DNA from: an uncultured archaeon
Lineage (GTDB): Archaea > Thermoplasmatota > Poseidoniia > MGIII > CAYLMJ01
DNA: 64,000 nt
Direction of reading: 5' to 3'
Assembly (NCBI GenBank): GCA_964384995.1
Contig: CAYLMJ010000008.1
Span: forward strand, 1,158-65,157
Below the pieces are notes generated by a model, which was not told where the DNA came from, did no database searches, and worked only from the letters and a program-made list of their open reading frames with translations. The position numbers were made by a program, and so were the translations under genes. Shown piece after piece: positions 31,071 through 64,000 of the stretch; within the stretch, counting starts at the first letter, position 1, and each line of letters opens with the position of its first letter.

Positions 31071-31087
31071 CTTTTGCCATCCATGGG

Positions 31088-31096
31088 CCTTTATCG
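31088..31096 (-). promoter_or_regulatory. TATA-like box (CGATAAAGG on the minus strand) upstream of the SRP RNA
   Basis: Position relative to the predicted 5' end only. Confidence 0.35.
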
Positions 31097-31200
31097 TGAA
31101 CGCAGGGGCAGGCAAGCGGGCGGGCAGGCCGGCTTGTGCCAACTTCTTATTTAGGGTCCCCAATCCCTGGCGGTCTTCCCTCCCTCACCGGGTGCCATGC

Positions 31201-42775: not shown

Positions 42776-43053
42776 TGGCCGCTCCCGCCATCCGCTCCGG
42801 TCTCAGCGGCCAGGGCCTCTTCCAGTTCACCCAGCTCCTCAAGGTAGGCGAAGACCTCGTTGGCCTCCTCCTCATCCAGCTTCTGCAGGGCAAACCCCAC
42901 ATGGACGATGACGTAGTCGTTCACCTCGACATCGGGTACTGCGGCGATGCAGACCTCCTTCAGGATGCCGCCGAAGCTGACCTTGGCCATTCGGCTTTCA
43001 GGGGGGGTTGAGGCGTCGATGGACACGACCTTGCCGGGCACTGCCAAGCACAT
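42772..43053 (-). CDS. hypC: [NiFe] hydrogenase maturation chaperone HypC
   Basis: N-terminal MCLAVPGKV, with essential Cys2. 4-nt overlap with hypD. Confidence 0.9.
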
Positions 43054-43192
43054 TCAGAGAACCTCCTGGTTCCAGGTTCTTCTGCATTCTGGGATTGGGC
43101 ACATGGTGAGAGGCACCGCCGATGAAGGCTCACTATCGGCTTTAATACTAACCCTGTCACAGTAAGGTCTTTTAGAACTCTTAGAGATCAAT

Positions 43193-45520: not shown

Positions 45521-45628
45521 GCCTCCTCTTGGTAACTTCTGCCGCCTCCCCCTCGGAGCCCGGTGACCTTGGCGCCTCGATCGCGTACAATGGATGTGAC
45601 AGCGACCAGAAGCACCGACGGGGACATC

Positions 45629-46009
45629 CTACTTTTCCAGCTCCAGCTCCATGTCCCGTACAATGACCCCTGAGCCGCCGATGACCTCGGGCACCTCGCC
45701 GCATTTGGGGCACTCCAGTGGAGGCAGGTTGTGATGGTCCTCCTCGGCGCCGGGCGGCAGCTCCACCGGACCCTTGTAGTCACAGGCCGAACAGCCCACG
45801 GTGGCCGGGACCCGGACTATCTCCAGCTCGCAGCCCTCCAAGGGCGAGTCGGGGGCGATCATCTCGAACGAGTGGCGCAGGGGCTCGTTGCCCACGAACG
45901 ACAGCTCCCCCACCTCCAGCTTGAGCCTGATGACCCGCAAAGCCTTGTGCTTCTTGGCCAGGGCCAGGGCCGAGTCAAAGACACTCTGGGCCATGGAATA
46001 CTCGTGCAT
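45629..46009 (-). CDS. hypA: Hydrogenase nickel-insertion protein HypA
   Basis: Start at MHEYSMAQSV. Zinc site CSAC...CPKC. TATA-like CTTTAAAG about 35 nt upstream. Confidence 0.85.
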   Translation of the reverse strand: MHEYSMAQSVFDSALALAKKHKALRVIRLKLEVGELSFVGNEPLRHSFEMIAPDSPLEGCELEIVRVPATVGCSACDYKGPVELPPGAEEDHHNLPPLECPKCGEVPEVIGGSGVIVRDMELELEK

Positions 46010-46122
46010 GTGTATCACGCAGGCCAGCGGCCCGGGAGGCTTTAAAGGGAGGTGGGCGCAGTTGTTTCCATCAGGGTCTTGCCTGGGACCTGGACCGCGT
46101 CCCACCCCAAAGCTTATTACGG

Positions 46123-46142
46123 ATTTCCCACTTGTGGGAAAT
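46123..46142. promoter_or_regulatory. Perfect palindrome ATTTCCCAC-TT-GTGGGAAAT in the hypA / RadB-like divergent intergenic region
   Basis: 9-bp arms read directly. Confidence 0.45.
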
Positions 46143-46286
46143 TCCGTGAAACCCGACAGTGAGACAACACCAGCCAGTATAGCCCGACAGCCGCCCCGCC
46201 GCAGTGGCAATGCGGGCCCCACCCTCGGCCCTGGGGCTGAGACGGCCTCCGACAACGATCCCGGAGAGGCTCCTTCGGAGACCGTC

Positions 46287-47114
46287 ATGAAGCGAGGGCG
46301 GTTGATGCCAGTGGCCCTGCCGGCGGCGGCCCTCTACCAGTGGCTGGCCCAGGGCGTCATGGAGCTGGACTGTCACGGAGTGATGGTGGACGGCGCCAGC
46401 ACCGCCAACCCCTACGCCCTGGTGGCGGCGGCCAAGGCCCTGGACCTTCCGGTGGACGAGGTGACCCGGCGGGTCCATGTGGTTCGGGGCTTCACCGCCC
46501 ACCAGCTGGAGCGGCTCTGCACCCATGACCTGCCCGAGCTGGCCCTGGAACTGGGAGCCCAGGGGCGGCGACTGGGCCTGGTCTGGCTCTCGGGGCTGAG
46601 CCTCTTCGAGGGCGATGACCAGCTCCAGCCCTTTGAGGGCGAGGCTCTGCGCGGCCGCTCCCTGAAGGCCATGGCCCGGCTGGTGAATCGGAACTGGGCC
46701 TTCGGCATCCTGACGGCCGCCGCCGGCCGCGGCTACGGCCACACCGGTCCGGGAGGGCCCGGGACCAGGTATCGGATAGAGTTCACACAGGAGGAGTGCA
46801 GAGTGGGACGTAGCTTACCCTCGTATCGCAATCAGCTTGAACACACCCTGGGCCGCTGGCAGGCCTACCGCCGGGCCCTCTCGCCCCGCGAGCGACCCTT
46901 CTTCGACCGGGTGACGGCCATGGCCCGGGCCCATGCCGCCCAGGGCGCTTACCTGGGCTCCGTGGACCCCATCGAGCCGGTGCTGCTGGCGGTCCTGGTG
47001 GAGCAGGAGAAGCGGCTGGAGGCCCTGGAGGGCCGACGGACCTTGGAGGCCCATTCGGCCCCGCGCACCGACGAGGAAACCCCGACCAGGGTGACTCCGG
47101 GCGACCGGGGATGA
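46287..47114 (+). CDS. RadA/RadB (RecA-superfamily)-like protein lacking Walker A and B, with helical C-terminal extension
   Basis: Pattern match to RadB. VMVDGASTANPYALVAAAKALDLPVDEVTRRVHVVRGFTAHQ resembles V.VDTEG.F.PERL...A...GL...E.L..I.V.RA....Q. GLVWLSGLSLF sits at the Walker B position. No GxxxxGK[ST] is present. Start at 46287 or 46305. Confidence 0.55.
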   Translation: MKRGRLMPVALPAAALYQWLAQGVMELDCHGVMVDGASTANPYALVAAAKALDLPVDEVTRRVHVVRGFTAHQLERLCTHDLPELALELGAQGRRLGLVWLSGLSLFEGDDQLQPFEGEALRGRSLKAMARLVNRNWAFGILTAAAGRGYGHTGPGGPGTRYRIEFTQEECRVGRSLPSYRNQLEHTLGRWQAYRRALSPRERPFFDRVTAMARAHAAQGAYLGSVDPIEPVLLAVLVEQEKRLEALEGRRTLEAHSAPRTDEETPTRVTPGDRG

Positions 47115-47180
47115 GGGGCGGGGGGCGAGGCCATCGAGGGCTGGCTGCTGGACGTCCACGCTCTGCCCCGCCGGGAGAAG

Positions 47181-49415: not shown

Positions 49416-49430
49416 CTAACCGGCGTTGCC

Positions 49431-49820: not shown

Positions 49821-49894
49821 CGGCGAGTTGGACCCCATCTCCTGGAGTTGAAAAGAAAGGGTGATTAACCAGATGTTGTTGGGGGGCCGAACCC

Positions 49895-52048: not shown

Positions 52049-52076
52049 TCCCTCATTGAAACCCCGAGGAGATTGC

Positions 52077-53792: not shown

Positions 53793-53837
53793 GGCGGGTA
53801 TGAACTAGGGCGGGTAAGCCCCCAATCCCTAGTTCAC
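53784..53837. terminator. Direct repeat GAACTAGGGCGGGTA x2 plus inverted CCCTAGTTCAC (hairpin spanning the etfA stop codon)
   Basis: Direct copies at 53786-53800 and 53802-53816. The complement arm is at 53827-53837. Terminator role is inferred only. Confidence 0.35.
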
Positions 53838-54237
53838 GCTCGTCCCTGTTGGCCAGGTCACCCCTCTTCGCTGAACGGCCCGGTCAGTGAGTAGCCCGGC
53901 CCAGTACCATCCCAGGGCATTGACAGTTGAGCCCAAGGCTCCAGGATTTTCCAAGCTCATTGATGGGTTTTTCAATTGCCCGACCCGAGATCCTGGCTGA
54001 TGGTGTGATAGAAACGAGTGAGATCCCGATCCTTCCACGATCATTGCCCAAAACATCGCCAGAACATCCGGCGAGGGCACTGATGAAATTAGCATCCCAA
54101 TAATATCATCAAATAAAAAGCATTTACTGTAAATAAATCGTGAGCTCTGCACTCCCTAGTGTACAATAATATGCGGGAATCGTAAATACATTAGTGACAA
54201 GGAGTTCTTATTAACTTTAAGAATTGCTCGAACCGAA

Positions 54238-54267
54238 CAACGATGGAGCTTAGACTCTCTATCGTTG
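54238..54267. promoter_or_regulatory. 11-bp imperfect inverted repeat CAACGATGGAG-N8-CTCTATCGTTG upstream of the etf/hdr/mvh operon
   Basis: One mismatch. Lies 28 nt before the ATG at 54295, inside a low-GC spacer. Confidence 0.4.
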
Positions 54268-54294
54268 CATTGCAGCAGCCGGGGGTTTCCTATA

Positions 54295-55536
54295 ATGCAA
54301 GACGAGCCGACTACCCAATCTTTACTTCCGGAGATTACCATAGACCCCGCCTCCAAGGAGGCCACCCGAGATTATCTACGCCGAGTGATCGCTCTGCCGG
54401 AAGGCCAGAAGATCCAGAACTGCATCCAGTGTGGGACCTGCACCGGCGGGTGTCCCCACGGCCATGTGATGGATTTCGCCCCCCGGAAGATGATCGCCGC
54501 CCTGCGAGCGGGATGGATCGATGAGATCCTGACCAGCGACACCATCTGGCTGTGCGTGGCCTGTTACACCTGCGCCCACCGTTGCCATGCCGGGATCGAA
54601 CTGGTGGACCACATGATCACCTCCATGCGCGAGGAGTTCCTGATCAAGGGCGCCGGTGTCCCCACCGAGTTGCAATCCGCTTTCGAGCGTTCAGGCCGCT
54701 ACGGCAACCCATTCGGCGAGTCTCCGCGCAAGCGGGGCAAATGGACCAAGGGCACCGACCTCGAGGTCAGGGAGCTCAAGGCCGGCGATTCGGCCGATGT
54801 GCTCTGGTTCGTGGAGTGCTTCCCAGCCTTCCACAAGCGCAACCAGGAGGCCTCCCGCGACTTCGCCCGGATCCTCAATGCCCTCAAGGTCGATTACGGC
54901 ACCCTGGGCAAGGACGAATGGTGCACCGGCGACGGCCGACGCCTGGGCGGTGAAAAGGGACTCTTCGAGGTGCTGTACGAGCACAACGCCGCCGAGCTGG
55001 CCAAGCGGGAGTTCAACGAGATCCTGGTCACCGACCCCCACGCCTACAACGCCCTGGTCCGTGAATACCCGACTCTGGGCAGCACCTACAAGGTCACCCA
55101 CTACTCCCAGTTCCTGATGGACCGCATCGAGGAGCTGAAACCCCTGATGACCAAGTCCCTTGACCTCAAGGTCACCTACCATGATCCCTGTTACCTGGGC
55201 CGGCGCAACGACATCTACGAGCCTCCCCGCGAGCTCCTGGCCAGCATCCCCGGCGTCAAGCTGGTGGAGATGGACCGCAATCGCGAGGACGCCCTCTGCT
55301 GTGGTGGCGGCGGCGGCGGAGTCTGGCTGGACAGCTTCATCTGGGAGCACACCGAGGTCCCTCTGCCCGAACAGCGGGTGAAGGAGGCGGCCCGAACCGG
55401 TGCCGATGTGATGGCTGTGGCCTGCCCCCTGGAGGTGTCCCGTTTCGAGGACGCTGTGAAGACCGCGGGGCTGGAAGGTCAGCTGGCGGTCAAGGAGATA
55501 ACCGAGTTGATAGCAGAGGCTATGGAACCCTCATGA
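54295..55536 (+). CDS. Soluble Fe-S oxidoreductase, HdrD/GlpC-like (2x[4Fe-4S] plus CCG domains)
   Basis: Start at MQDEPT. Motifs: CIQCGTCTGGCP, CVACYTCAHRC, HDPCYLGRRN, and CCGGGGG. Confidence 0.8.
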   Translation: MQDEPTTQSLLPEITIDPASKEATRDYLRRVIALPEGQKIQNCIQCGTCTGGCPHGHVMDFAPRKMIAALRAGWIDEILTSDTIWLCVACYTCAHRCHAGIELVDHMITSMREEFLIKGAGVPTELQSAFERSGRYGNPFGESPRKRGKWTKGTDLEVRELKAGDSADVLWFVECFPAFHKRNQEASRDFARILNALKVDYGTLGKDEWCTGDGRRLGGEKGLFEVLYEHNAAELAKREFNEILVTDPHAYNALVREYPTLGSTYKVTHYSQFLMDRIEELKPLMTKSLDLKVTYHDPCYLGRRNDIYEPPRELLASIPGVKLVEMDRNREDALCCGGGGGGVWLDSFIWEHTEVPLPEQRVKEAARTGADVMAVACPLEVSRFEDAVKTAGLEGQLAVKEITELIAEAMEPS

Positions 55537-55546
55537 GGTGAGTCAA

Positions 55547-56314
55547 ATGGATCTGATAGTTCTGATGAAACAGGTGCCCGATGTGGTGGAGGAGCTGGTA
55601 ATCGATGATGATGGCAAGGCTCTCGACACCGACGAGGTAATGTACATCCCCAACGAGCTGGACGAGCACGCCCTGGAGCAGGCCCTGCTGCTAAAGGAGC
55701 AGCATGGCGGCAAGATCACTGTGATATCCGTGGGCGGCGACGAGGCCAAGGATGCCCTGGCTTCCGCCGTGGCCAAGGGTGCCGATGAGGCGGTCTACGT
55801 CGAGGCCGAGATGGAGGGCCAGTGCGACAACCACAAGCTGGCCTCCCACCTCGATGGGATCATCAAGGGCCGCACTTTCGACATGCTCCTCACCGGTGTC
55901 CAGGCCGTGGACGATATCGACGGCAGTGTGGGCAGCCTCCTGGCCACCCATATGGACCTGCCCTACGTGGGAGGGCTGGCCAAGGTCAGCGCCGACCCCG
56001 GCCGGCGCGTCACAACCGTCGAGAAGGAGTTTCCCGGCGGCCTGCTGGGCGAGATGGAAGTGACCTTCCCCGCCATCCTGGGCGTCCAGTCGGCCGAGCA
56101 GCCTCCCCGCTACGTCCCGGTCAGCAAGGTCATGCAGACCAAGAAGACCCTGGAGGTCGAGGAGCTTGGTGACGAGCTTCCCGAGGTCTCGGGCCTGGCC
56201 ATCCAGGAGATGGTCCTGCCAGAACCCGCCGAGCGCGCCGAGATGCTTGAGGGCGACGGGGAAGATGTGGCTGCGAGGATCGTCGAGCTCTTGCAGGAGC
56301 GTGGTTTGTTATGA
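55547..56314 (+). CDS. etfB: Electron transfer flavoprotein beta-subunit-like (divergent)
   Basis: Start at MDLIVLMKQVPD with GAGGTGA upstream. Motif: NELDEHALEQALLLKE. Confidence 0.75.
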   Translation: MDLIVLMKQVPDVVEELVIDDDGKALDTDEVMYIPNELDEHALEQALLLKEQHGGKITVISVGGDEAKDALASAVAKGADEAVYVEAEMEGQCDNHKLASHLDGIIKGRTFDMLLTGVQAVDDIDGSVGSLLATHMDLPYVGGLAKVSADPGRRVTTVEKEFPGGLLGEMEVTFPAILGVQSAEQPPRYVPVSKVMQTKKTLEVEELGDELPEVSGLAIQEMVLPEPAERAEMLEGDGEDVAARIVELLQERGLL

Positions 56315-57288
56315 GCCAGTCCGATATTGTTGTTATCGCCGAGCACCGGCAGGGCCAGATAGCCGAGATAACCTACGAGCTGGTGGCCTGCGGTCGCAAG
56401 CTGGCCTCCGACCTTTCGGGGACCTTGACCTGCCTGCTGCTCACCAGTGCGCCTGACACCTTCAAGGGTTGCAACCTCAACGTTGATCGGCTTGAGGTGA
56501 TCGAGGATGCCAGCCTGGGCGAGTTCAACCCGGAGGCCTATCACAAGGTCCTCGCCCCCATGCTGAAGGGGCTGGCCCCAGGCCTGGTCATCCTGGGCAA
56601 CACCGGCTCAGGCATGGACCTGGCCTCTTCCCTTTCCCTGGCCTGCGACGCCACCCTCATCGCCAACTGCACCGAGATCACCGCGGCGGGAGGCGCTCTC
56701 TCCGCCACCAGCCAGCTCTACGGCGGCAAGGTCATGGCCACCAGCCAGTTCTCCTCCCCCATGGGCATCGCCCTGCTGATGCCGGGCAACTACGCCCAGG
56801 AGGAGGGCCAGGCGGCTCCCGGAGCGGTCAATGTCCAGGCACCCCCTGAGCCCCTGGGAACCCTGCGAACAACCTTCAAGCGTTTCATCGAACCCGAGGT
56901 CACCGATGTGGACATCACCAAGGTCCCGGTGCTCATCGCCGCCGGTCGAGGCGTCGATGGTGAGGACAACCTGGAGGACATCGAAGAACTGGCCGAGGCA
57001 CTTGGCGGGGCCACCTGCGCCTCCCGGCCTGTGGTGGACCAGGGCTGGATGGACCGCGCTCGCCAGGTGGGTCGTTCCGGCATGATCGTCAAGCCCAGGT
57101 TCTACCTGGCCCTTGGCCTCTCCGGAGCCCCCGAGCACGTGGAGGGCATGAAGGACTCCGAGCTCATCATCGCCATCAACACCGACGAGACCGCCCCCAT
57201 CTTCGACGTGGCCCACTTCGGCTCAACCGAGGACCTGTTTGACGTGGTCGAGCCCCTGGCCGAGAAGATCGAGGAGCTGCGAGGTTAA
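56311..57288 (+). CDS. etfA: Electron transfer flavoprotein alpha-subunit-like (divergent FAD motif)
   Basis: ATGA overlap with the upstream gene. Motifs: ASRPVVDQGW, QVGRSGMIVKPRFYLALGLSGAPEHVEGM, and IIAINTDETAPIF. Confidence 0.75.
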   Translation: MSQSDIVVIAEHRQGQIAEITYELVACGRKLASDLSGTLTCLLLTSAPDTFKGCNLNVDRLEVIEDASLGEFNPEAYHKVLAPMLKGLAPGLVILGNTGSGMDLASSLSLACDATLIANCTEITAAGGALSATSQLYGGKVMATSQFSSPMGIALLMPGNYAQEEGQAAPGAVNVQAPPEPLGTLRTTFKRFIEPEVTDVDITKVPVLIAAGRGVDGEDNLEDIEELAEALGGATCASRPVVDQGWMDRARQVGRSGMIVKPRFYLALGLSGAPEHVEGMKDSELIIAINTDETAPIFDVAHFGSTEDLFDVVEPLAEKIEELRG

Positions 57289-57291
57289 TTG

Positions 57292-59370
57292 ATGTCCGCT
57301 CAGGAGGGCCCGGACATCGGTCGTGAGGCCTTCGACCATTTCCCCCACTGGATGCACCTGAGCTTCTACGCCATCTCGGCCCTGGCGGTGGTCATTTTCC
57401 TCTTCGGGATATGGCTTCACGCCCGGCGCTACTGGGCGGCCCGGCGCAACATCGGCCGGTTCGATCTTCGCAGCATGCCCCTGAAGCTCTGGGTGGCGTT
57501 CCAGAAGTTGACCCTGCAGCGCTCACGGCTCTGGCGCAACGACCGCTTTGCCGGCATCGCCCACGACCTGGTGCTTTGGGGCTTTGTGGTCCTCGTCATC
57601 GGCACCGTCATAATGACCCTGGAGGAGGATGTGGCCGAGCTGTTCTTCGGGGTCCACTTCCTCAAGGGCACCTTGTACCTTGTCTACTCGTTCGTGCTGG
57701 ACGTCTTCGGCATAGTCTTCATCGTCGGCATGATGATGATGTTCTACCGCCGCTCGGGCGACCGCACCCCCAGGCTCGATTACAGCGACGAGGACAGCAC
57801 CGATGGGTCCGAGGGCAGGGGTGCCTCCCTGGGCACCTTCCTGATGGACGACAAGCTCTTCCTGTTCCTGCTGGTTATCGCGGGTTTCACCGGCTACTTC
57901 GCCGAGGGCATCCGCATCTACCGTGATGATACTCCCTTCGCCGACGAGTGGTCCCCCATCGGTGTGGGTCTGGCGGCCCTCGTGGGTGTGGCGAACCTGA
58001 GCGCAGATACGGCTACCGACATCCACCAGGTGTTGTGGTGGATCCACGCCATCGGCGCCCTGGCCTTCGTGGCCTACATCCCCCACTCCAAGGCCATGCA
58101 CATGCTGTCCGGATTCGGCAGCCTCGTGTTCCACGATGAGCAGGCCGGCAAGCGCCTGGAAGCCCCGATCAACGAGGAGCCCTCCGGCTTCACCCAGCTG
58201 TCAGACTTCTCCTGGGTCCAGCTGATGCAGATGGACGCCTGCGTCCGATGTGGGCGCTGTCACGAGAGCTGTCCCGCCCAGGCCAGCGGCCTGCCCCTGT
58301 CGCCCCGGGGTCTCGTCCTCAACTTCAAGGCCCACAGTCAGGGCCTCAACGGCAATGGCGGCGAAACCCAGCCCCTGGTTGGGGACTCCATCGGGCAGAC
58401 CACCCTCTGGTCCTGCACCACCTGCATGGCCTGCATGGACGCCTGCCCCTTGCACATCGAGCATCTGCCCCTCATCGTCGAGGGCCGTCGCTACCTGGTG
58501 AACCAGGGGATGCTCGACGGTGGCGTGCAGACCGCCCTGGAGGCCCTGGGACGCTACGGCAACTCGTTCAAGCGTCCGGCCAAGGGTCGTGCCAAGTGGT
58601 CCAAGAAGGCCGAACCGGCCGTCAAGGACGCTCGCAAGGAGCCGGTGGAATACCTGTGGTACCTGGGTGACTACGCCACCTACGACAAGCGGTGCCAGGA
58701 TGTGACCAAGGTCACCGCCGGTGTCATGGTCAAACTGGGTATCGACTTTGGCACCCTGAAGGAGGGCGAGAAGAACTCCGGCAACGATGCTCGACGCATC
58801 GGCGAGGAAGGGCTCTTCGACATGCTCCAGGAGCAGAACCTGGAAGCCCTCCAGGCGGCCGAGTACACCCATCTGGTGACCACCGATCCCCATACCTATC
58901 ATACCTTCAAACATGAGTATCCGACCCTCAACAAGGGCCGGATCCTTCATTCCAGTGAGCTACTGGCCGAACTCCTCCAAAACGGTCAACTAAAGTTCAC
59001 TAACCAACTCAAAGGCAAAGTGACCTTCCATGACCCCTGTTATCTGGGGCGCTACAACTCGGTGTACGACGCACCCAGAGATGTGCTGAAGGCCACCGGC
59101 CTCGATCTGATCGAGATGGAACGCTGTCGCTCCAACAGCTACTGTTGCGGGGCCGGCGGTGGCCGCATATGGATGGAGGAGTTGGAGGGCGAGACCGAGC
59201 GTCCCGCCGAAAGCAGGGTCAAGGAGGCCGCCAGTCTTGGAGACGTGGACACGTTGGTCGTGGCCTGTCCCAAGGACTATGTGATGTTCCAGGACGCGGT
59301 GAAGACCGCTGGCCTGGAGGATTCCCTCCAGATCAAAGACCTGTTCGAACTAGTGGAGGAGGCGTTATGA
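57292..59370 (+). CDS. Membrane-anchored Fe-S oxidoreductase (DsrM/NarI-like TM + DsrK/HdrD-like), paralog of 49895-52048
   Basis: TM helices with WWIHAIGALAFVAYIPHSKAMH. Motifs: CVRCGRCHESCP, CTTCMACMDACP, HDPCYLGRYN, and CCGAGGG. Confidence 0.8.
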   Translation: MSAQEGPDIGREAFDHFPHWMHLSFYAISALAVVIFLFGIWLHARRYWAARRNIGRFDLRSMPLKLWVAFQKLTLQRSRLWRNDRFAGIAHDLVLWGFVVLVIGTVIMTLEEDVAELFFGVHFLKGTLYLVYSFVLDVFGIVFIVGMMMMFYRRSGDRTPRLDYSDEDSTDGSEGRGASLGTFLMDDKLFLFLLVIAGFTGYFAEGIRIYRDDTPFADEWSPIGVGLAALVGVANLSADTATDIHQVLWWIHAIGALAFVAYIPHSKAMHMLSGFGSLVFHDEQAGKRLEAPINEEPSGFTQLSDFSWVQLMQMDACVRCGRCHESCPAQASGLPLSPRGLVLNFKAHSQGLNGNGGETQPLVGDSIGQTTLWSCTTCMACMDACPLHIEHLPLIVEGRRYLVNQGMLDGGVQTALEALGRYGNSFKRPAKGRAKWSKKAEPAVKDARKEPVEYLWYLGDYATYDKRCQDVTKVTAGVMVKLGIDFGTLKEGEKNSGNDARRIGEEGLFDMLQEQNLEALQAAEYTHLVTTDPHTYHTFKHEYPTLNKGRILHSSELLAELLQNGQLKFTNQLKGKVTFHDPCYLGRYNSVYDAPRDVLKATGLDLIEMERCRSNSYCCGAGGGRIWMEELEGETERPAESRVKEAASLGDVDTLVVACPKDYVMFQDAVKTAGLEDSLQIKDLFELVEEAL

Positions 59371-61346
59371 CAGACGAACTGAAAATAGGTGTCTATGTCT
59401 GTGACTGTGGCACGAACATCGCTGGCGTCGTTGACGTTCCAGCGGTAGTAGAGCATGCAAAAGGGCTCGCGGGAGTGGCTGTGGCCAGGGAGTACAAGTA
59501 CATGTGCTCCAGCCCGGGACAGGACCTGATCAAGGATGACATCCGGGATCTGGGGATCAACCGCGTGGTTGTCGCCTCCTGTTCACCCCACCTCCATGAG
59601 ACCACTTTCCGAAATGCCGTGGAAGAGGCTGGAGGCAATGCCTTCATCATGCACATGGTGAACATCCGCGAGCAGGTCTCGTGGGTCACAACCGACCATG
59701 CCGAGGCCACCGAGAAGGCCAAGTCCCTGGTCAGTGCAGGAGTGGCCCGGGTGGGTCACCATGAGGCCCTGGACCGTCGGCAGGTCTCGGTGCGGGACGA
59801 GATCCTCGTCCTCGGCGGGGGTATCGCCGGCATCCAGGCCGCGCTGACAGCGGCCGAGGCCGGTCGTCAGGTCTACCTGGTGGAGAAGGAACCCACCATC
59901 GGCGGCCACATGGCCAAGTTCGACAAGACCTTCCCCACCCTGGACTGTTCGGCCTGTATCCTGACCCCCAAGATGACCACCGTGGGCAGCCATCCCAACA
60001 TCAACATGCTGACCTACTCCGAGGTCACCGAGGTCGAGGGTTACACTGGCAACTACAATGTCACCATCAAGCGCAAGCCCCGCTACATCAAGGAGGACGC
60101 CTGTATCGGCTGCTTCCAGTGTGTAGAGGACTGCGTCTTCAAGGAAGCCAAGGTCCCCAGCGAGTTCGACGAGGGCCTGGGCAAGCGCAAGCCGGTCTAC
60201 ATATCCTTCCCCCAGGCTGTGCCCCAGATCGTCACCATCGATCCCGCCACATGTCTGCAGCTCAAGGTCGGCAAGTGCAAGCAGACCTGCGTGGACGCCT
60301 GTGGCGAGCGCAACGCCATTGACTTCGACATGCAGGAGGAGCTCATGGAGGTGGAGGTGGGAGCCATCATCGTCACCACCGGCTTCAAGACCTTCGACGC
60401 GGCCCAGACCACCAATTACGGCTACGGCAAGTATCCCGAGGTCTACACCGGCCTGGAGATCGAGCGCGTCCTGTCCTCAAGCGGACCCACCGGCGGCGAG
60501 CTGGTCATGAAGAACGGGGAGGCCCCCGAGACCGTGGCCATCATCCACTGTGTCGGCTCCCGGGACGAGAATTACAACATCTACTGCTCCAAGGTCTGCT
60601 GCATGTACTCGCTGAAGTACGCACACCTGGTCAAGGAGCGCACCGGTGCCGAGGTCCACGAGTTCTACATCGACATGCGGACCCCCGGCAAGGGCTACGA
60701 GGAGTTCTACCTCCGTCTGATGGAGGAGGGCACCAACATGGTCCGGGGCAAGATCGCCCATATCACCGACATCGCCCAGACCGACGAGGAGGAGGGCAAG
60801 CTGGTGGTCGTGGGTGAGGACACCCTGCTGGGCGTGGTTCGCCGAACCCCGGTGGACATGGTCATCCTGAGCACCGGCCTGGAGGCCTCACCCGAGAAGG
60901 AGGATGTCCGTCGGATGCTCAACATGTCCTGCTCCTCTGAGGGCTTCTTCATGGAGAAGCACCCCAAGCTGGCTCCGGTCAACACCGTCAACGACGGCAT
61001 CTACATCGCCGGCGCCTGCCAGGGTCCCAAGGACATCCCCGAGACCGTGGCCCAGGCCGAGGCCGCGGCCGCAGAGGCCATCGCCCTGACCTCCAAGGGT
61101 TTCATCACCCTAGAGCCCAACCTGGCCTCGGTGAACGAGGACCTTTGTTCCGGTTGCCACGTATGTATCTCGCTCTGTCCCTACACGGCCATCGAGTACG
61201 ACGAGGAGAAGAAGGTCTCGGTGATCAACGACGTGCTCTGCAAGGGTTGCGGCGTCTGCGTGGCGGCCTGTCCCAGTGGAGCCATCAGCCAGAAGCTGTT
61301 CGAGTATGACCAGATCATGGATGAACTGAAGGCGGTGCTAGCATGA
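59367..61346 (+). CDS. hdrA: Heterodisulfide reductase subunit A-like flavoprotein
   Basis: Start at MTDELKIGVYVCDCGTNIAG, an ATGA overlap with the upstream gene. Motifs: ILVLGGGIAGIQAAL, FPTLDCSACILTPKM, and multiple ferredoxin CxxCxxCxxxCP motifs. Confidence 0.9.
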   Translation: MTDELKIGVYVCDCGTNIAGVVDVPAVVEHAKGLAGVAVAREYKYMCSSPGQDLIKDDIRDLGINRVVVASCSPHLHETTFRNAVEEAGGNAFIMHMVNIREQVSWVTTDHAEATEKAKSLVSAGVARVGHHEALDRRQVSVRDEILVLGGGIAGIQAALTAAEAGRQVYLVEKEPTIGGHMAKFDKTFPTLDCSACILTPKMTTVGSHPNINMLTYSEVTEVEGYTGNYNVTIKRKPRYIKEDACIGCFQCVEDCVFKEAKVPSEFDEGLGKRKPVYISFPQAVPQIVTIDPATCLQLKVGKCKQTCVDACGERNAIDFDMQEELMEVEVGAIIVTTGFKTFDAAQTTNYGYGKYPEVYTGLEIERVLSSSGPTGGELVMKNGEAPETVAIIHCVGSRDENYNIYCSKVCCMYSLKYAHLVKERTGAEVHEFYIDMRTPGKGYEEFYLRLMEEGTNMVRGKIAHITDIAQTDEEEGKLVVVGEDTLLGVVRRTPVDMVILSTGLEASPEKEDVRRMLNMSCSSEGFFMEKHPKLAPVNTVNDGIYIAGACQGPKDIPETVAQAEAAAAEAIALTSKGFITLEPNLASVNEDLCSGCHVCISLCPYTAIEYDEEKKVSVINDVLCKGCGVCVAACPSGAISQKLFEYDQIMDELKAVLA

Positions 61347-61765
61347 GTCCCGACAACTTCGAACCCAACATCGTGGCCTTCGTGTGCAACTGGTGCACCT
61401 ACATCGCCGCCGATACCGCCGGGGTCTCCCGGGCCAAGTACGCTCCCAACGTGAAGCTGATCCGAACCATGTGCTCGGGTCGGGTCGATCCCCAATTCGT
61501 TCTGACCGCCCTGCAGAAAGGGGCCGACGGCGTCCTGGTCTGCGGCTGCCATCCCGGCGACTGCCACTACAAGGAGGGCAACTACAAGGCCCTCCGGCGC
61601 CACACCCTGCTGAAGAAGATGCTGGGACAGCTCGGTGTCGAGGACCAGAGGGTGCGACTGGAATGGATATCGGCTTCCGAGCCGGAGAAGTTCAAGGAAG
61701 TGGCCAATGAGATCACCGAGCAGATCAGACAGCTTGGCCCATTCCAGAACAACGGAGGTGAATAG
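61343..61765 (+). CDS. mvhD: Methyl-viologen-reducing hydrogenase delta subunit (MvhD/FlpD)
   Basis: Motifs: IVAFVCNWCTY, MCSGRVDP, and VLVCGCHPGDCHY. ATGA overlap with hdrA. Confidence 0.9.
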   Translation: MSPDNFEPNIVAFVCNWCTYIAADTAGVSRAKYAPNVKLIRTMCSGRVDPQFVLTALQKGADGVLVCGCHPGDCHYKEGNYKALRRHTLLKKMLGQLGVEDQRVRLEWISASEPEKFKEVANEITEQIRQLGPFQNNGGE

Positions 61766-62770
61766 ATGGCTGAGAAATTGAAAGTGGCACTTCACTGGCT
61801 GGCCTCCTGCGGCGGCTGTGAAGTGGCCGTGGTCGATGTGGACGAGAAGATCCTGGATGTCGTGGCTCTCATGGACATCCTGTTCTGGCCCGTGGCCCTG
61901 GACGGCAAGTACTCCGACATCAAGGCCATGGAGGACAACTTCCTGGACATCGCCATCATCAACGGCGGGGTCCGTACCACGGAACAGGAGGAGCACGCCA
62001 AGCTCTTCCGTGACAAGGCCAAGGTGGTCGTGTCCTTCGGCTCCTGCGCCTGCACCGGCGGAGTTCCGGGGCTGGCCAACTGCACCACCAAGGAGGCCAT
62101 CCTCCAGACCGCCTACCACGACACCGTGTCCACCTCCAACGAGGCCGGGACCCGCCCGCAACCCAAGTGGGATGATGAGGTCACCGGTGAGACCATGACC
62201 CTCCCGACCCTGTACGAGGAGGTCAAACCGTTGGACCAGGTCATCGATGTGGATTACTACCTGCCGGGATGCCCCCCCTCGGAAGCCCGTATCCTGGACC
62301 TGGTCGGCGTGGCCGCCAATTTCGCCGAGACCGGTGAACTGCCCCCCAAGGGCGCCATCATCGCCGCCGAGAAGTCGGTGTGCGACGAGTGTGAGCGCGA
62401 GAAGGGCGAGAAGAACATCACAGAGATCAAACGGCCTCACAGTTTCGACGCCGACCGCGAGCAGTGCCTGCTGGAACAGGGCATCATCTGCCTGGGCCCT
62501 GCCACCCGGGGCGGATGCGGCGCCCCCTGCATGGACGCCAACATGCCCTGCCGGGGCTGTCAAGGCAAACCCGAGCAGGTCGATGATCAGGGACTCAAGA
62601 TGCTCTCGGCCCTGGCTTCCATCATGGGCGTGGAGAACGAGGAGGAGAGATCCTTTGAGGAGGTCGAAGAGATGATCGACCAGGTGGTCGATCCACTGGG
62701 AACCTTCTATCGCTTCAATCTCCCGGTGGCGATAATCAACAAGACCCAAGCTAAGACGGAGGTGAAATGA
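61766..62770 (+). CDS. mvhG: [NiFe] hydrogenase small subunit (MvhG-like)
   Basis: Motifs: LASCGGCEVAVVD and SFGSCACTGGVPG, with C-terminal Cys clusters. GGAGGTGA upstream. Confidence 0.85.
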   Translation: MAEKLKVALHWLASCGGCEVAVVDVDEKILDVVALMDILFWPVALDGKYSDIKAMEDNFLDIAIINGGVRTTEQEEHAKLFRDKAKVVVSFGSCACTGGVPGLANCTTKEAILQTAYHDTVSTSNEAGTRPQPKWDDEVTGETMTLPTLYEEVKPLDQVIDVDYYLPGCPPSEARILDLVGVAANFAETGELPPKGAIIAAEKSVCDECEREKGEKNITEIKRPHSFDADREQCLLEQGIICLGPATRGGCGAPCMDANMPCRGCQGKPEQVDDQGLKMLSALASIMGVENEEERSFEEVEEMIDQVVDPLGTFYRFNLPVAIINKTQAKTEVK

Positions 62771-64000
62771 TGACCGAGGACCTAGAGAAGCAGGCCCGCG
62801 AGACCAAGCGGGTCACCATCGACCCCATCACCCGACTCGAGGGTCACGGCAAGATCGAGATATTCCTCAATGACGCAGGCAACGTGGCCAACGCCTACCT
62901 GCAGGTTCCTGAACTGCGCGGTTTCGAGCGTTTCTGCGTGGGCCGTCCCGGCGAGGAGATGCCCCGCATCACCCCCCGCATCTGCGGGGTCTGCCCCATC
63001 GCCCACCACTTCGCCTCCACCAAGGCCCTGGACGCCTGTTACAGCACCCCGCCCACCTCGGCCGCCGCCAAGTTGCGGGAGCTCATGTACGCAGGCGCCT
63101 ACCTCTACGACCACACCCTGCACTTCTACTTCCTGGGGGGTCCCGACTTCGTTGTCGGTCCCACGGCACCCAAGCTGGAGCGCAACATCCTGGGAGTGAT
63201 CGGCAAGGTGGGCCTGGACATCGCCGGCGAGGTCATCAAGCATCGCTCCTACGGTCAGAACATCCAGACCATCCTGGGAGGCAAGGCGACCCATCCGGTC
63301 AACGGCATCCCGGGCGGGGTGTCGAAGGGGTTGAACGATGAGGAGGTGGCCCAGATCAAGGAGTGGGCCGATTCCTCCGTGAAGTTCGCCCAGTTCACCC
63401 TGCAGGTATTCAACGATGTGGTCCTGAAGAACAAGGATTACGTGGATGTCATCCTGTCCAAGGCCTACAACTTCCCCACCTACTACATGGGGATGGTGGA
63501 CGAGAACAACAAGGTAAACTTCTACGACGGCAAGATCCGCGTGGTCGACCCCGAAGGCAAGGAGTTCGCCAAGTTCGAGGCGAAAGATTACCTGGACCAC
63601 ATCGCCGAGGCCGTGGAGCCCTGGACCTATGTGAAGATCCCCTACCTGAAGCAGGTGGGCTACAAGGGCCACGTCACCGGCATGGATTCGGGCATCTACC
63701 GGGTCGCCCCGCTGGCACGGCTGAACGCCTCGGACGGCATGGCCACACCCCTGGCCCAGGAGGCTCACGATCAGATGTACGAGGTGCTGGGAGGCAAGCC
63801 GGTCCACGCGACCCTGGCCACCCATTGGGCCCGCCTGGTGGAGTTGCTGTACGCAACCGAGCGGTTGCAGGAGCTGATCAACGACCCCCAGATAACCTCG
63901 GATGACCTGCGCGCACCCCTGGGCAAACCGGGGGAGGGTGTGGGCGTCATCGAGGCGGCCCGGGGTACCCTGTGGCACCACTACAAGCTCGATGACAACG
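62767..64000 (+). CDS. mvhA: [NiFe] hydrogenase large subunit (MvhA-like), N-terminal about 411 aa; continues past the window
   Basis: Not in the ORF track because there is no stop in the window. Own translation: MMTEDLEKQARETKRVTIDPITRLEGHGKIEIFL...RITPRICGVCPIAHH (N-terminal Ni-binding RxCGxC motif). ATGA overlap with mvhG. Confidence 0.85.
   Translation, partial: MMTEDLEKQARETKRVTIDPITRLEGHGKIEIFLNDAGNVANAYLQVPELRGFERFCVGRPGEEMPRITPRICGVCPIAHHFASTKALDACYSTPPTSAAAKLRELMYAGAYLYDHTLHFYFLGGPDFVVGPTAPKLERNILGVIGKVGLDIAGEVIKHRSYGQNIQTILGGKATHPVNGIPGGVSKGLNDEEVAQIKEWADSSVKFAQFTLQVFNDVVLKNKDYVDVILSKAYNFPTYYMGMVDENNKVNFYDGKIRVVDPEGKEFAKFEAKDYLDHIAEAVEPWTYVKIPYLKQVGYKGHVTGMDSGIYRVAPLARLNASDGMATPLAQEAHDQMYEVLGGKPVHATLATHWARLVELLYATERLQELINDPQITSDDLRAPLGKPGEGVGVIEAARGTLWHHYKLDDN

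Follow-up and report, generated by a model that had tools for sequence, protein, structure and literature searches.

A probable H2-fed, HdrA-type bifurcating system with a dedicated ETF as possible high-potential outlet, encoded by a conserved archaeal operon

Towards its 3' end the window, that is the whole 64,000-nucleotide stretch of archaeal DNA analysed here, carries an operon that we read, with moderate confidence, as encoding an H2-fed HdrA-type bifurcating system whose high-potential outlet would be a dedicated ETF, not a disulfide. The earlier note had proposed H2-linked HdrA bifurcation with an ETF or quinone partner in place of a heterodisulfide, and conserved gene linkage, His-blocked motifs in the HdrD-like proteins and the precedent of the Bam complex support this proposal as far as sequence allows. 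If it is correct, H2 in these non-methanogens would charge ferredoxin and the respiratory chain together, without disulfide reduction. Full-text literature searches returned no description of the cluster.

Operon layout and encoded proteins

ORF listing, translation and domain calls with Pfam and NCBIfam models bear out the previously described arrangement of eight co-directional genes, which overlap or nearly abut and encode an HdrD-like protein, EtfB, EtfA, a membrane Fe-S protein, HdrA, MvhD, MvhG and MvhA (Table 1). ATGA start/stop overlaps occur at 56311, 59367, 61343 and 62767, and the remaining intergenic gaps measure 10, 3 and 0 nt. Internal promoters that might split the cluster were looked for by A+T content. 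Scanning positions 49000 to 64000 for at least 65% A+T in 40 nt revealed a sole AT-rich island, peaking at 85%, which precedes the first gene and is a candidate promoter for the whole operon; no such island lies inside the cluster. An accessory [NiFe] maturation block, hypE-D-C-F-A, occupies 40554..46288 of the opposite strand, and the same block adjoins the operon in a 75%-identical relative (L169).

Table 1. Coordinates of the operon genes, the candidate promoter region and the maturation genes
Feature	Position	Strand	Description
hypE	40554-41840 as listed, true start probably later	-	Pfam AIRS/AIRS_C
hypD	41672-42775	-	Pfam HypD
hypC	42772-43053	-	read from translation
hypF	43193-45520	-	Pfam HypF domains
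hypA	45629-46288	-	Pfam HypA
AT-rich island	54074..54247		5' of g1; candidate archaeal promoter region of whole operon
g1 HdrD1	54295-55536	+	413 aa; soluble HdrC-like di-cubane domain fused to HdrB-like non-cubane-cluster (CCG) domain
g2 EtfB	55547-56314	+	255 aa; small subunit of dedicated ETF; alternative GTG start 55538
g3 EtfA	56311-57288	+	325 aa; FAD-carrying large subunit of dedicated ETF
g4 EMO/EtfD-type ETF:menaquinone oxidoreductase	57292-59370	+	692 aa; variant subfamily
g5 HdrA	59367-61346	+	659 aa; probable bifurcating FAD/Fe-S flavoprotein
g6 MvhD	61343-61765	+	140 aa; [2Fe-2S] adaptor, hydrogenase to HdrA
g7 MvhG	61766-62770	+	334 aa; [NiFe] hydrogenase small subunit
g8 MvhA	62767-64000	+	[NiFe] large subunit, cut by window end; would run to ~64263
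HdrD2, BamD-like	equivalent to ~64358-65500	+	seen on L001, L002, L004
HycI	equivalent to ~65565-66116	+	seen on L001, L002, L004

The rest of the operon is seen on contigs that share 3.5-10.4 kb with the window and differ there at 3 to 46 bases. On these near-identical contigs the full mvhA product measures 498 aa, a 380-aa gene with Fer4 and two CCG domains (HdrD2, or g9) starts 94 nt 3' of mvhA, and hycI follows after a further 64 nt. The claim that stand-alone hdrB and hdrC are absent beside hdrA thus holds inside the window but not past its end, where a fused HdrCB-like gene lies directly 3' of mvhA. This HdrCB-like gene is BamD-like and not of the catalytic type.

HdrA scores 807 bits against the HdrA2 model and, over its full length, 705 bits against methanogen HdrA 8RVU_a and 676 bits against 5ODC_A; the alignment takes in the whole of its inserted and C-terminal ferredoxin domains, and the residue aligned to K409 of 5ODC_A is a Lys. 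MvhD matches Pfam FlpD over the full model (186 bits) as well as VhuD (132 bits), while MvhG carries Pfam Oxidored_q6 and matches VhuG over its full length (215 bits). The windowed part of MvhA scores 396 bits against VhuA, and the full-length product (L001) best matches the Vhu/Mvh large subunits 9SFI_g (401 bits) and 5ODC_F (390 bits). With an N-terminal RICGVC motif and a C-terminal DPCYGCATH motif followed by a cleavable tail, both Ni-binding CxxC motifs are present, and the protein is best described as a group-3c-like [NiFe] large subunit. Full-length HdrA, the K409-equivalent Lys and the Ni-binding motifs together indicate that HdrA/Mvh is probably a competent bifurcase.

The ETF encoded by the operon appears to be a specialised one. 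EtfB (Pfam ETF, 87 bits) has its closest solved relative in 1O94_C, the beta subunit of the M. methylotrophus ETF (113 bits), which is of the AMP-binding, non-bifurcating type; the operon's EtfB matches bifurcating EtfBs with 82 and 70 bits. EtfA shows Pfam ETF and ETF_alpha domains and matches 6FAH_A, 5OL2_A and 1O94_D with 166, 160 and 158 bits. Orthologues of this EtfB travel with the cluster, and it is just 28% identical to its neighbouring paralogue u2. Because a separate canonical EMO-EtfBA set adjoins in the same window, the in-operon ETF/EMO pair would not be needed for ordinary beta-oxidation.

HdrD1 consists of a Pfam Fer4 dicluster (Fer4_8) and two CCG domains, with no TM helix predicted, and matches PDB HdrC chains as well as EtfD 9OJN. 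Against the HdrC model TIGR03290 it scores 76 bits, compared with 60 bits for HdrD2 and 30 bits for the operon EMO, so that among the three candidates HdrD1 has the cubane domain closest to HdrC. HdrD1 retains two of the five distal-motif cysteines, four proximal-motif cysteines plus a Glu, and the His of the CPHC position, a residue that in EMO and BamD obstructs the CoM site. In both HdrD1 and HdrD2 the proximal motif is His-blocked and the distal motif incomplete, and the full 10-Cys catalytic pattern is lacking. The same combination is reported for BamD and EMO, the clusters of which pass electrons to or from ETF without disulfide reduction. Bacterial versions of the cluster have split, fully 10-Cys hdrC-hdrB beside hdrA. 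No 10-Cys HdrB was found in the archaeal core clusters, where HdrD1 is the only HdrBC equivalent. Its orthologous family adjoins etfBA-EMO in every context examined, and HdrD1 is proposed as the link between HdrA and ETF.

The variant EMO and conservation of the cluster

The membrane Fe-S protein combines a NarI-like haem-b membrane domain (four strong hydrophobic helices and a weaker fifth within residues 1-270) with two cubane motifs in a Fer4 dicluster and a single non-cubane-cluster motif in its one CCG domain. It scores 231 bits (E 2e-67) against M. smegmatis EtfD (PDB 9OJN), whereas the DsrK model gives 64 bits, its cut-off being 400; the description "DsrMK-like" is therefore replaced here by EMO/EtfD. 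Three invariant histidines, H91, H252 and H270, match H87, H233 and H251, the haem ligands of S. aciditrophicus EMO. None of the five distal-motif cysteines is kept (D, N, S, D and T stand in their place), and an Asp takes the position of the last proximal-motif cysteine; the protein belongs to a distinct subfamily of EMO/EtfD without any distal non-cubane cluster cysteine.

This subfamily keeps particular company. Counting homologues at least 50% identical, HdrD1 and/or HdrA are adjacent at 19 of 37 EMO loci with Asp at the last proximal-motif position, rising to 11/15 when the flanks are long, and at none of the 119 loci that keep the cysteine (Fisher p = 1.4e-14, with no correction for common descent). 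Among the long-flanked variant loci, roughly one in four lacks both genes in its neighbourhood.

The order HdrD1-EtfB-EtfA-EMO-HdrA-MvhD-MvhG-MvhA(-HycI-HypA) recurs in the archaeal MAGs L167 (Euryarchaeota archaeon RBG_16_68_13), L170, L172 and L169, and the same parts are found in Armatimonadetes CSP1-3 (L009), in Anaerolineales/Chloroflexota (L010, L011, L171) and in about ten metagenome contigs. The ATGA coupling of EMO to hdrA is kept in archaea. Several relatives have HdrD1, or kinases together with hdrCB, between EMO and hdrA; one Dehalococcoidia genome has HdrA without Mvh. When the relatives were checked for separation of the etf/Fe-S genes from hdrA-mvh, the opposite was observed, the two halves lying together across Archaea, Chloroflexota and Armatimonadota.

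Proposed electron flow and competing explanations

From gene order, motifs and the analogy below, we infer the subunit contacts, ETF as acceptor, which way the electrons run and which quinone they reach. MvhA and MvhG would oxidise H2, and MvhD would hand the electrons to the FAD of HdrA. There the flavin would split the pair, sending the low-potential electron through the HdrA ferredoxin domains to ferredoxin and the high-potential electron through the two cubanes and the remaining non-cubane cluster of soluble HdrD1, possibly of BamD-like HdrD2 too. The HdrD-like protein would reduce the FAD of the dedicated EtfAB, which could then diffuse to the co-encoded EMO variant and pass electrons via Fe-S clusters and haem b to menaquinone. 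The net reaction would be 2 H2 + oxidised ferredoxin + menaquinone -> reduced ferredoxin + menaquinol.

Precedent comes from class II benzoyl-CoA reductase, in which the high-potential electron travels from HdrA-type BamE via BamD to an ETF; docking of this ETF was seen by cryo-ET and its reduction in vitro, EMO and menaquinone further downstream being the route proposed by the authors (bioRxiv 10.64898/2026.04.10.717634). The Bam complex is cytoplasmic, with ETF as its shuttle, and the BamOP ETF has a potential near +16 mV (bioRxiv 10.64898/2026.04.10.717634). For H2 at ~10 Pa the potential is near -300 mV, and that of ferredoxin is -450 mV. Taking the BamOP value for the ETF, the mean of the two acceptors is ~-217 mV, and H2 oxidation would therefore be downhill.

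The cluster might also comprise two independent modules side by side, EtfAB-EMO serving acyl-CoA dehydrogenases and menaquinone, and Mvh-Hdr reducing a (hetero)disulfide with H2 through its HdrD-like or HdrBC subunit. We consider this unlikely. Each module is known to function alone, sensor-kinase genes part the halves in L010, L011 and L171, and some variant EMO loci lie away from Hdr and Mvh genes; in the bacterial relatives, where canonical hdrC-hdrB directly precedes hdrA, a disulfide-reducing Mvh-HdrABC may exist with the ETF module merely co-regulated. Against it, the adjacency is held across two domains of life, with ATGA coupling of EMO to hdrA in archaea, and the EMO and ETF form a dedicated subfamily, the sole one seen beside HdrD1 or HdrA, next to a canonical set that is present separately. 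The archaeal core clusters offer non-catalytic, His-blocked HdrD-like proteins in place of a 10-Cys HdrB, and the clusters inspected contained no annotated or recognisable acyl-CoA dehydrogenase.

In the reverse, confurcating direction, dehydrogenase-reduced ETF and reduced ferredoxin would drive proton reduction by MvhAG, a fermenting or syntrophic archaeon thereby shedding high-potential electrons as H2. The chemistry of HdrA and Mvh can in principle run either way, syntrophs are known to need a means of passing ETF electrons on to H2 or formate, and for the related Ca. Yaplasmales lineage the degradation of alkanes, fatty acids and aromatics has been described. The earlier note had suggested such a role, in which the oxidation of acyl-CoA or amino acids is coupled to H2 formation, but it finds no support here: the clusters inspected held no recognisable ETF-reducing dehydrogenase, and the direction is thermodynamically poor if the ETF potential is BamOP-like, as at the calculated mean H2 would have to stay near 0.02 Pa, under typical environmental levels. 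The in-operon EMO would have no role in H2 evolution, and the cytochrome c maturation and multihaem cytochrome genes neighbouring the L172 cluster point to respiration. We rate confurcation as somewhat less probable again than two modules.

Least probable, in our view, is that HdrA docks directly on the EMO variant, at its cytoplasmic cubane domain, giving a membrane-bound Mvh-HdrA-EMO that bifurcates H2 electrons to ferredoxin and, without a carrier between, to menaquinone, with ETF/HdrD1 as a separate second input. Such an arrangement would fit the overlap of the EMO stop with the hdrA start, the homology of the soluble EMO part to HdrC plus HdrB, and the loss of the distal cluster, which in the solved complex is one of the two that lie closest to the flavin of the docked ETF. 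Structural reasoning speaks against it, as the first cubane of solved EMO faces the membrane haem, the place HdrA takes on HdrC. Moreover, the EMO cubane domain is far less HdrC-like than that of HdrD1, the two genes are not contiguous in several relatives, and the Bam complex works in the cytoplasm through a shuttling ETF.

Several observations count against the preferred reading, with ETF as outlet: the 10-Cys hdrC-hdrB of the bacterial versions, the variant EMO loci that lie apart from HdrD1 and HdrA, and the Dehalococcoidia genome with HdrA but no Mvh. In the source organism, two HdrD-like proteins compete for the HdrA-to-ETF role; of these, HdrD2 is missing from the clusters of the archaeal relatives L167, L170 and L172.

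Gene layout and genomic surroundings

The ORF list and translations place eight genes on one strand up to the end of the window, joined by ATGA start/stop overlaps at 56311, 59367, 61343 and 62767 and separated at the other junctions by gaps of 10, 3 and 0 nt. ORFs, overlaps and Pfam and NCBIfam domains agree, bearing out the eight-gene layout that an earlier note had read from the sequence, in which an Etf pair, an HdrD-like protein and a membrane Fe-S protein are joined to HdrA and MvhDGA. GC3 is 0.80-0.88 across all eight frames. An A+T profile, rather than a scan for sigma-70 promoters and terminators, was used because the host is archaeal. The sole AT-rich island within 49000-64000 lies directly upstream of the first gene, a position from which we infer that a single promoter and a single transcript could serve g1 to g8.

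The exact MvhG sequence is also present on other contigs. Three of these, L001, L002 and L004, show 3 to 46 base differences in the 3.5-10.4 kb that they have in common with the window. On contigs extending past base 64000, the full mvhA encodes 498 aa, with a C-terminal ...DPCYGCATH followed by a 27-residue tail. The reported lack of hdrB and hdrC beside hdrA holds within the window, but a fused HdrCB-like gene, encoding HdrD2, lies downstream of mvhA outside it. A maturation protease beyond base 64000 was also looked for on the near-identical contigs and is present there.

Features of the operon, its continuation on near-identical contigs and its neighbourhood (window coordinates; domains from Pfam and NCBIfam)
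Feature	Position	Strand	Description
Operon, g1 to g8	54295 to window end	+	eight genes
g1 (HdrD1)		+	HdrD-like, soluble; Fer4 dicluster and two CCG domains
g2		+	EtfB
g3		+	EtfA
g4 (EMO variant)		+	692 aa; hydrophobic helices in first ~270 residues, Fer4 dicluster, one CCG domain
g5		+	HdrA
g6		+	MvhD (FlpD)
g7		+	VhuG/MvhG-like small subunit
g8		+	VhuA/MvhA-like large subunit; truncated by window end
g9 (HdrD2)	94 nt after mvhA, past window end		380 aa; Fer4 and two CCG
Maturation protease	a further 64 nt after HdrD2		HycI-type
AT-rich island	54074-54247		upstream of g1
Second EMO-EtfB-EtfA set, u1 to u3	49895-53792	+	502 nt before g1
u2	52056-52832	+	second-set EtfB
u3	52833-53792	+	second-set EtfA
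hypE-hypD-hypC-hypF-hypA	40554-46288	-	complete maturation block, upstream of operon
hypC	42772-43053		within the block
SRP RNA	30727-31041	-	archaeal
856-aa ORF	30958-33528	+	multidomain
815-aa ORF	46815-49262	-	opposite the polymerase gene
DNA polymerase gene	47181-49415	+	family B

The window is archaeal because it carries an archaeal SRP RNA (168 bits), the only RNA family match in it, as well as genes for a PAC2 family protein and a family-B DNA polymerase. No tRNAs and no methanogenic genes were found in the 64 kb, and the remainder consists of housekeeping genes only, without metabolic context. The closest named genome carrying the cluster is Euryarchaeota archaeon RBG_16_68_13, which, going by the order's name, probably belongs to the order RBG-16-68-12 (Ca. 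Yaplasmales). Within the hyp block, hypC falls under the size threshold of the ORF list and was taken from the translation; the hypE ORF as listed overlaps hypD by 169 nt, so that its true start is probably later. The neighbouring second set begins with u1, a 717-aa EMO of canonical cysteine pattern (9 Cys and the His, two CCG stretches, a weak NarI match), and its three proteins are just ~28-35% identical to their operon counterparts. No such second set was seen beside the operon in the relatives L167, L169, L170 and L172.

Two further ORFs call for care. The listed TTG start of the 856-aa ORF overlaps the SRP RNA by 84 nt and is probably wrong; the frame combines an isochorismatase-like region, a TCAD9 domain and a dual-specificity phosphatase domain, TCAD9 being a domain of NTP-dependent conflict systems. 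The 815-aa ORF is, by its codon-position GC (0.89/0.48/0.72), a shadow ORF of a high-GC genome, with many like it across the window.

An EMO variant and two HdrD-like proteins

EtfD, or EMO, is an ETF:(methyl)menaquinone oxidoreductase built from three domains. The NarI-like one binds haem b, the HdrC-like one carries two cubane clusters, and the third, which resembles HdrB, carries two non-cubane clusters and serves as the docking site of ETF. The membrane protein g4 matches M. smegmatis EtfD (PDB 9OJN_A) over both its membrane and its soluble parts (231 bits, E 2e-67). The DsrMK label that it had been given was dropped, as the DsrK model reaches 64 bits against a curated cut-off of 400. Residues H91, H252 and H270 of g4 are invariant in the alignment and correspond to the haem ligands H87, H233 and H251 of S. 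aciditrophicus EMO, with the same 18-residue spacing as between H233 and H251. The hydropathy profile agrees with an N-terminal NarI-like five-helix domain, with a weak match to the QmoC membrane domain, so that both the hydrophobic helices and the haem-ligand histidines sought in this protein are present. Both cubane [4Fe-4S] motifs, CVRCGRCHESCP and CTTCMACMDACP, are found as well, and etfB and etfA lie directly upstream of the gene in the window and in relatives. Taken together, the EtfD match, the low DsrK score and the histidine correspondence identify g4, at the level of sequence, as an EMO and not a DsrMK.

To compare the non-cubane sites, the ten cluster cysteines and the CPHC histidine, which blocks the CoM site in EMO and BamD, were mapped onto the 9OJN sequence. 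None of the five distal cysteines is left in g4, where the positions read D, N, S, D and T, and Pfam recognises a single CCG stretch. Its proximal motif retains four cysteines and the histidine, with the fifth cysteine replaced by Asp in every Hdr-linked orthologue. The EMO literature that we found describes loss of one distal cysteine only. Haloarchaeal EMO homologues (L013-L086), ~40% identical to g4, lack all five distal cysteines and keep the five proximal ones.

Cysteine signatures at the distal and proximal non-cubane motifs
Protein	Distal motif	CPHC His	Proximal motif
u1, neighbouring EMO	C C N C. C (canonical)	kept	C C C C C
g4 and all Hdr-linked orthologues, archaeal and bacterial	D N S/A D. 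T/S (zero Cys)	kept	C C C C D
HdrD1 (g1) family, most members	C C x D. A	kept	C C C C E (Asp in L168)
HdrD2 (g9)	C C C S. C	kept	C C C C C

The two HdrD-like proteins retain six (HdrD1) and nine (HdrD2) of the ten cysteines and both have a histidine at the CPHC position, so neither shows the complete ten-cysteine catalytic HdrB pattern. The split HdrB of bacterial relatives has all ten cysteines, and the histidine is absent. HdrD2, with four cysteines in one motif and the histidine and five cysteines in the other, has the count per motif and the change from Cys to Ser that were reported for BamD, in which the distal cluster is a [3Fe-4S] cluster and the proximal one has five cysteines and one histidine (bioRxiv 10.64898/2026.04.10.717634). 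It shares 45% identity with an HdrD-like protein encoded in the metagenome cluster L165. In all-against-all BLAST, HdrD1 proteins score 340-580 bits among themselves, about 200 bits against HdrD2, 200-250 against the soluble halves of EMO and 40-90 against true split HdrC and HdrB. Judged from these scores and motifs, HdrD1 is an HdrD family different from BamD, with an even more reduced distal motif.

Flavoproteins, hydrogenase and conservation of the cluster

HdrA aligns end to end (residues 3-658) with its methanogen homologues, scoring 705 bits against 8RVU_a and 676 against 5ODC_A. The protein is full-length: its FAD domain is thioredoxin-reductase-like, Fe-S domains stand at both termini and as an insertion, and a lysine occupies the flavin position. 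This lysine aligns with K409 of 5ODC_A, which we take to be the one beside flavin N5 in methanogen HdrA. Profile scores for the hydrogenase side are 186 bits for FlpD (MvhD), 215 for VhuG and 396 for VhuA. Among large subunits, MvhA scores best against those of Vhu/Mvh (401 and 390 bits), ahead of the NAD-reducing group (331) and the periplasmic enzymes (<=143), and both Ni-binding CxxC motifs, RICGVC and DPCYGCATH, are present. With Vhu/Mvh subunits as closest solved relatives, the sequence comparison points to group 3c, as had been expected. In the Bam system, the equivalent of the HdrA lysine is described as a hallmark of Hdr-type bifurcating flavins (bioRxiv 10.64898/2026.04.10.717634).

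In bifurcating (group 2) ETFs, EtfB binds a second FAD where its non-bifurcating counterparts bind AMP. The operon EtfB scores best against Methylophilus ETF 1O94_C (113 bits), presumably an AMP-binding, non-bifurcating protein, and reaches 82 and 70 bits against bifurcating EtfBs. The stretch GRQAIDGDTAQVG, common to two bifurcating EtfBs in the alignments and in our assumption diagnostic for that type, reads TGVQAVDDIDGSVG here. EtfA scores about equally against both kinds. The ETF partner in the solved EMO complex contains AMP. The ETF pairs of clusters in relatives are of the g2/g3 type and not of the u2/u3 type. The clusters inspected contain no annotated or recognisable acyl-CoA dehydrogenase or other ETF-reducing dehydrogenase, and the operon has a canonical EMO-EtfBA set as its neighbour, which argues for a dedicated shuttle rather than a general beta-oxidation ETF. 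The suggested coupling to acyl-CoA oxidation thus finds no evidence in these clusters.

Relatives were gathered by a scan of a genome collection with g4, a metagenome scan with the alignment and tblastn with all cluster proteins, and the gene context of six HdrD1 homologues was looked up. The gene order proved to be conserved, with the core kept in archaeal MAGs, Chloroflexota, Armatimonadetes and metagenome contigs. In RBG_16_68_13 (L167), L170 and L172 it is exactly HdrD1-EtfB-EtfA-EMO-HdrA-MvhD-MvhG-MvhA-HycI-HypA, with HdrD2 absent, and a 75%-identical relative (L169) has the hyp block upstream and HdrD2 downstream, like the window. The contig of an uncultured archaeon (L007) ends after HdrD1-EtfB-EtfA-EMO-HdrA. 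In Armatimonadetes CSP1-3 (L009), EtfBA-EMO-HdrA-MvhDGA form an unbroken run, and the genes for HdrD1 and two sensor kinases, together with split hdrC-hdrB, lie immediately upstream of it. In Anaerolineales and Chloroflexota (L010, L011, L171), HdrD1-EtfBA-EMO is followed by kinases, hdrC-hdrB and, where the locus reaches, HdrA-MvhDGA; the L171 contig ends within hdrA. The same core is found on the metagenome contigs L093, L094, L095, L096, L100, L101, L102, L103, L112 and L142, with HdrD1 sometimes between EMO and hdrA. In Dehalococcoidia CP070630 (L168, 5987-15244), HdrD1-EtfBA-EMO follows genes for a full-length HdrA, a universal stress protein and a response regulator, and no hydrogenase lies within 10 kb of the locus.

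Sorting 156 EMO loci by cysteine signature gave 37 with Asp at the last proximal position and 119 with Cys. HdrD1 and/or HdrA (>=50% identical) adjoin 19 of the 37 Asp-type loci and none of the 119 Cys-type loci, which include ~75 haloarchaeal EMOs also without distal cysteines. Where Asp-type loci have long flanks on both sides, 11 of 15 have HdrD1 and/or HdrA and 7 of 15 have Mvh. Fisher's exact test gives p = 1.4e-14 for the association, a value that ignores relatedness and is to be read as an indication, not a probability.

Beyond the core, the bacterial clusters that were scanned contain split hdrCB and sensor kinases with a Cache domain. Genes for a sensor histidine kinase of this Cache type and for a hybrid kinase/receiver lie inside the clusters of L009 (3140-6328), L010 (11964-15144) and L171 (15097-18651), which suggests regulation by an extracellular small molecule; archaeal clusters have no sensor kinases. 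In L172 (2454-9093) the operon adjoins cytochrome c maturation genes and a multihaem NrfA-like cytochrome, hinting at an anaerobic respiratory lifestyle. Upstream of HdrD1-EtfBA-EMO in L106, L108 and L113 (e.g. L108 133-3296), the full HdrA-Mvh is replaced by a 355-aa HdrA-like flavoprotein (Pyr_redox_2 only, 34-38% identical), together with a one-CCG 407-aa protein and a 265-aa protein without family assignment. By sequence, these short HdrA genes may belong to another input module that feeds the same ETF outlet.

Proposed electron path, alternatives and known counterparts

Gene order and motifs lead us to favour, by a modest degree, a wiring in which MvhAGD, HdrA, HdrD, ETF and EMO connect H2 to menaquinone. 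H2 would be oxidised at MvhAG, and its electrons would pass through MvhD to the FAD of HdrA. From this flavin one electron would go to ferredoxin, and the other via HdrD1 (and/or HdrD2) to EtfAB, EMO and menaquinone. In methanogens, the ferredoxin domains of HdrA reduce free ferredoxin. HdrD1, rather than EMO, is the likely partner of HdrA: it is a soluble protein, neither of the other two candidates has so HdrC-like a cubane domain (76 bits, with 60 for g9 and 30 for g4), and the equivalent face of EMO carries the membrane domain. By analogy, H2-linked HdrA bifurcation with ETF or the quinone pool as high-potential partner, as proposed in the earlier note, is supported by conservation, motifs and the precedent of the Bam system.

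That precedent is the class II benzoyl-CoA reductase of Geobacter metallireducens, with a BamE of HdrA type, an MvhD-like BamF, an HdrD-like BamD and the ETF BamOP. From the BamE flavin, the high-potential electron is reported to reach the ETF by way of BamD, first its cubanes and then its His-liganded non-cubane cluster. The ETF was seen docked on BamD in cells and could be reduced in vitro, and in the authors' proposal its reoxidation by EMO feeds menaquinone (bioRxiv 10.64898/2026.04.10.717634). Both systems have an HdrA-type bifurcating flavoprotein with the conserved lysine, an MvhD-type adaptor and an HdrC/B fusion in which the proximal non-cubane cluster has a His ligand and the distal one is disrupted. 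An ETF as high-potential acceptor with EMO as its reoxidant is the authors' proposal for Bam and would apply here by analogy. The systems differ in their input, a [NiFe] group-3c hydrogenase in contrast to BamGHI (NADH and reduced ferredoxin), and in their low-potential outlet, presumably free ferredoxin via the HdrA ferredoxin domains as opposed to the tungsten enzyme BamBC. None of the ten operon genes has domains of the tungsten AFOR-family BamB, of BamC or of a NuoEFG/HydABC-like input module such as BamGHI. Moreover, HdrA is single here (659 aa) and a fused double HdrA in Bam, the HdrD1 family is distinct from BamD, and etf and emo lie inside the operon.

In comparison with MvhAGD-HdrABC (PDB 5ODC, 8RVU), HdrA, MvhD, MvhG and MvhA are full-length homologues and the bifurcation chemistry is presumably the same. 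However, archaeal clusters have no HdrB with two complete five-cysteine motifs, the HdrC/B equivalents are fused, His-blocked and Cys-depleted, etfBA and emo are added, and the host has no recognisable methanogen traits within the 64-kb window. As in EtfABCX, a mid-potential donor would be split between ferredoxin and the quinone pool, with an ETF taking part. Here HdrA would hold the bifurcating flavin, with H2 as donor and an ETF that looks closest to the AMP-binding, non-bifurcating type, whereas in EtfABCX the ETF itself holds that flavin, with EtfCX as quinone reductase. EtfABCX/FixABCX of T. maritima bifurcates NADH electrons to ferredoxin and menaquinone (PMC10734219). Compared with EMO/EtfD itself (9OJN; S. 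aciditrophicus, bioRxiv 10.64898/2026.08.18.745454), g4 shares the three-domain architecture, the haem-ligand histidines, two cubane motifs, a proximal non-cubane motif with the histidine and four of its five cysteines, and the adjoining etfBA. It differs in lacking the five distal cysteines, in the change of the last proximal Cys to Asp and in translational coupling to hdrA; its subfamily accompanies HdrD1, HdrA and Mvh, not beta-oxidation genes. HdrDE of cytochrome-containing methanogens, whose closest architectural relative is EMO according to the EMO paper, likewise joins a membrane haem-b subunit to an HdrD (HdrC/B fusion). There, electrons run from a membrane carrier to a catalytic ten-cysteine site reducing CoM-S-S-CoB, in contrast to the path from ETF to quinone, past a non-catalytic non-cubane site, that is envisaged here.

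The alternatives concern the partners and the direction. Docking of HdrA directly on EMO is kept as a minor rival but seems very improbable on structural grounds, since reasoning from the published EMO structure places the membrane domain on the face matching HdrC's HdrA-binding side. As for direction, H2 at ~10 Pa lies near -300 mV and ferredoxin at -450 mV. Combining this ferredoxin value with a BamOP-like ETF, whose potential of +16 mV is borrowed (bioRxiv 10.64898/2026.04.10.717634), the mean of the two outlets is ~ -217 mV. Because H2 lies below this mean, we infer from standard potentials and the borrowed value that H2 oxidation would be the thermodynamically easier direction. The same machine running towards H2 evolution would, by this calculation, need H2 near 0.02 Pa, and we consider it quite unlikely.

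It is also unlikely, in our estimate, that the cluster consists of two independent modules that are simply adjacent. The bacterial versions speak for such a separation, as their split hdrC-hdrB, with ten cysteines and no histidine, stands directly before hdrA; a conventional disulfide-reducing Mvh-HdrABC may exist there, with the ETF module perhaps only co-regulated, and some variant EMO loci have no Hdr nearby. The window organism itself has two HdrD-like candidates, HdrD1 and HdrD2, for the same role. A thiol/disulfide shuttle, in which thiols formed from a disulfide by Mvh-HdrABC would be oxidised again through HdrD1-ETF-EMO, was set aside in view of the non-catalytic pattern of HdrD1 and the lack of a ten-cysteine HdrB in archaeal clusters.

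Every part of the preferred H2-to-menaquinone wiring belongs to a known family, and an ETF outlet of an HdrA bifurcase is already known for Bam. Full-text searches, which cover subscription journals thinly, returned no published description of an etfBA-emo-hdrA-mvhDGA operon, and the literature searched held none of a hydrogenase-fed version with an ETF outlet, of the HdrD1 family or of the linked Cys-less EMO subfamily. The Ca. Yaplasmales paper describes an MvhADG/HdrABC complex only, and Mvh-linked clusters go unmentioned in the EMO and Bam preprints. With slightly more doubt than confidence, we regard the system as the first hydrogen-fed HdrA bifurcase whose high-potential acceptor would be a dedicated ETF, which EMO would reoxidise with menaquinone, in place of a disulfide. 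Such a soluble, bifurcating uptake hydrogenase would charge both ferredoxin and the respiratory quinone pool, and the system would include two new Fe-S subfamilies, HdrD1 with its last proximal Cys changed to Glu and the EMO variant with a single non-cubane motif and Asp at that position.

Mvh-Hdr genes have been reported in many non-methanogenic MAGs, with the acceptor routinely given as an unknown heterodisulfide. For these, the operon names a concrete and testable candidate acceptor, the dedicated ETF, and a candidate sink, the EMO variant. If this is true, it would answer the long-standing question of what Mvh-Hdr reduces without CoM-S-S-CoB in Thermoplasmata-like archaea, Chloroflexota and Armatimonadota. 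The ETF outlet would then be a general, modular output of HdrA bifurcases, tying a cytoplasmic hydrogenase directly to quinone-based respiration. Group 3c hydrogenases are often taken as a methanogen-like or disulfide-linked trait; here they would signal respiratory H2 use. The ten operon genes form a defined set for joint expression and assay, and the cysteine signatures are simple sequence markers to detect such systems.

The searches also returned loci that bear on the Bam system. L165 (851-14065) encodes, from first to last, an AFOR-family protein, a 179-aa protein, an HdrD-like protein, a long HdrA-like protein, an MvhD-ferredoxin fusion, two DUF3795 proteins, a canonical EMO and EtfBA, and is by its gene content a Bam-like cluster; it is unrelated to the operon, which has no AFOR gene. 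Together with L164 and L129, it is genomic support, at the sequence level, for the ETF-EMO outlet proposed for class II benzoyl-CoA reductase. L164 and L129 are similarly Bam-core-like, with a canonical EMO and EtfBA directly after, and L164 adds an alcohol dehydrogenase and an enoyl-CoA hydratase.
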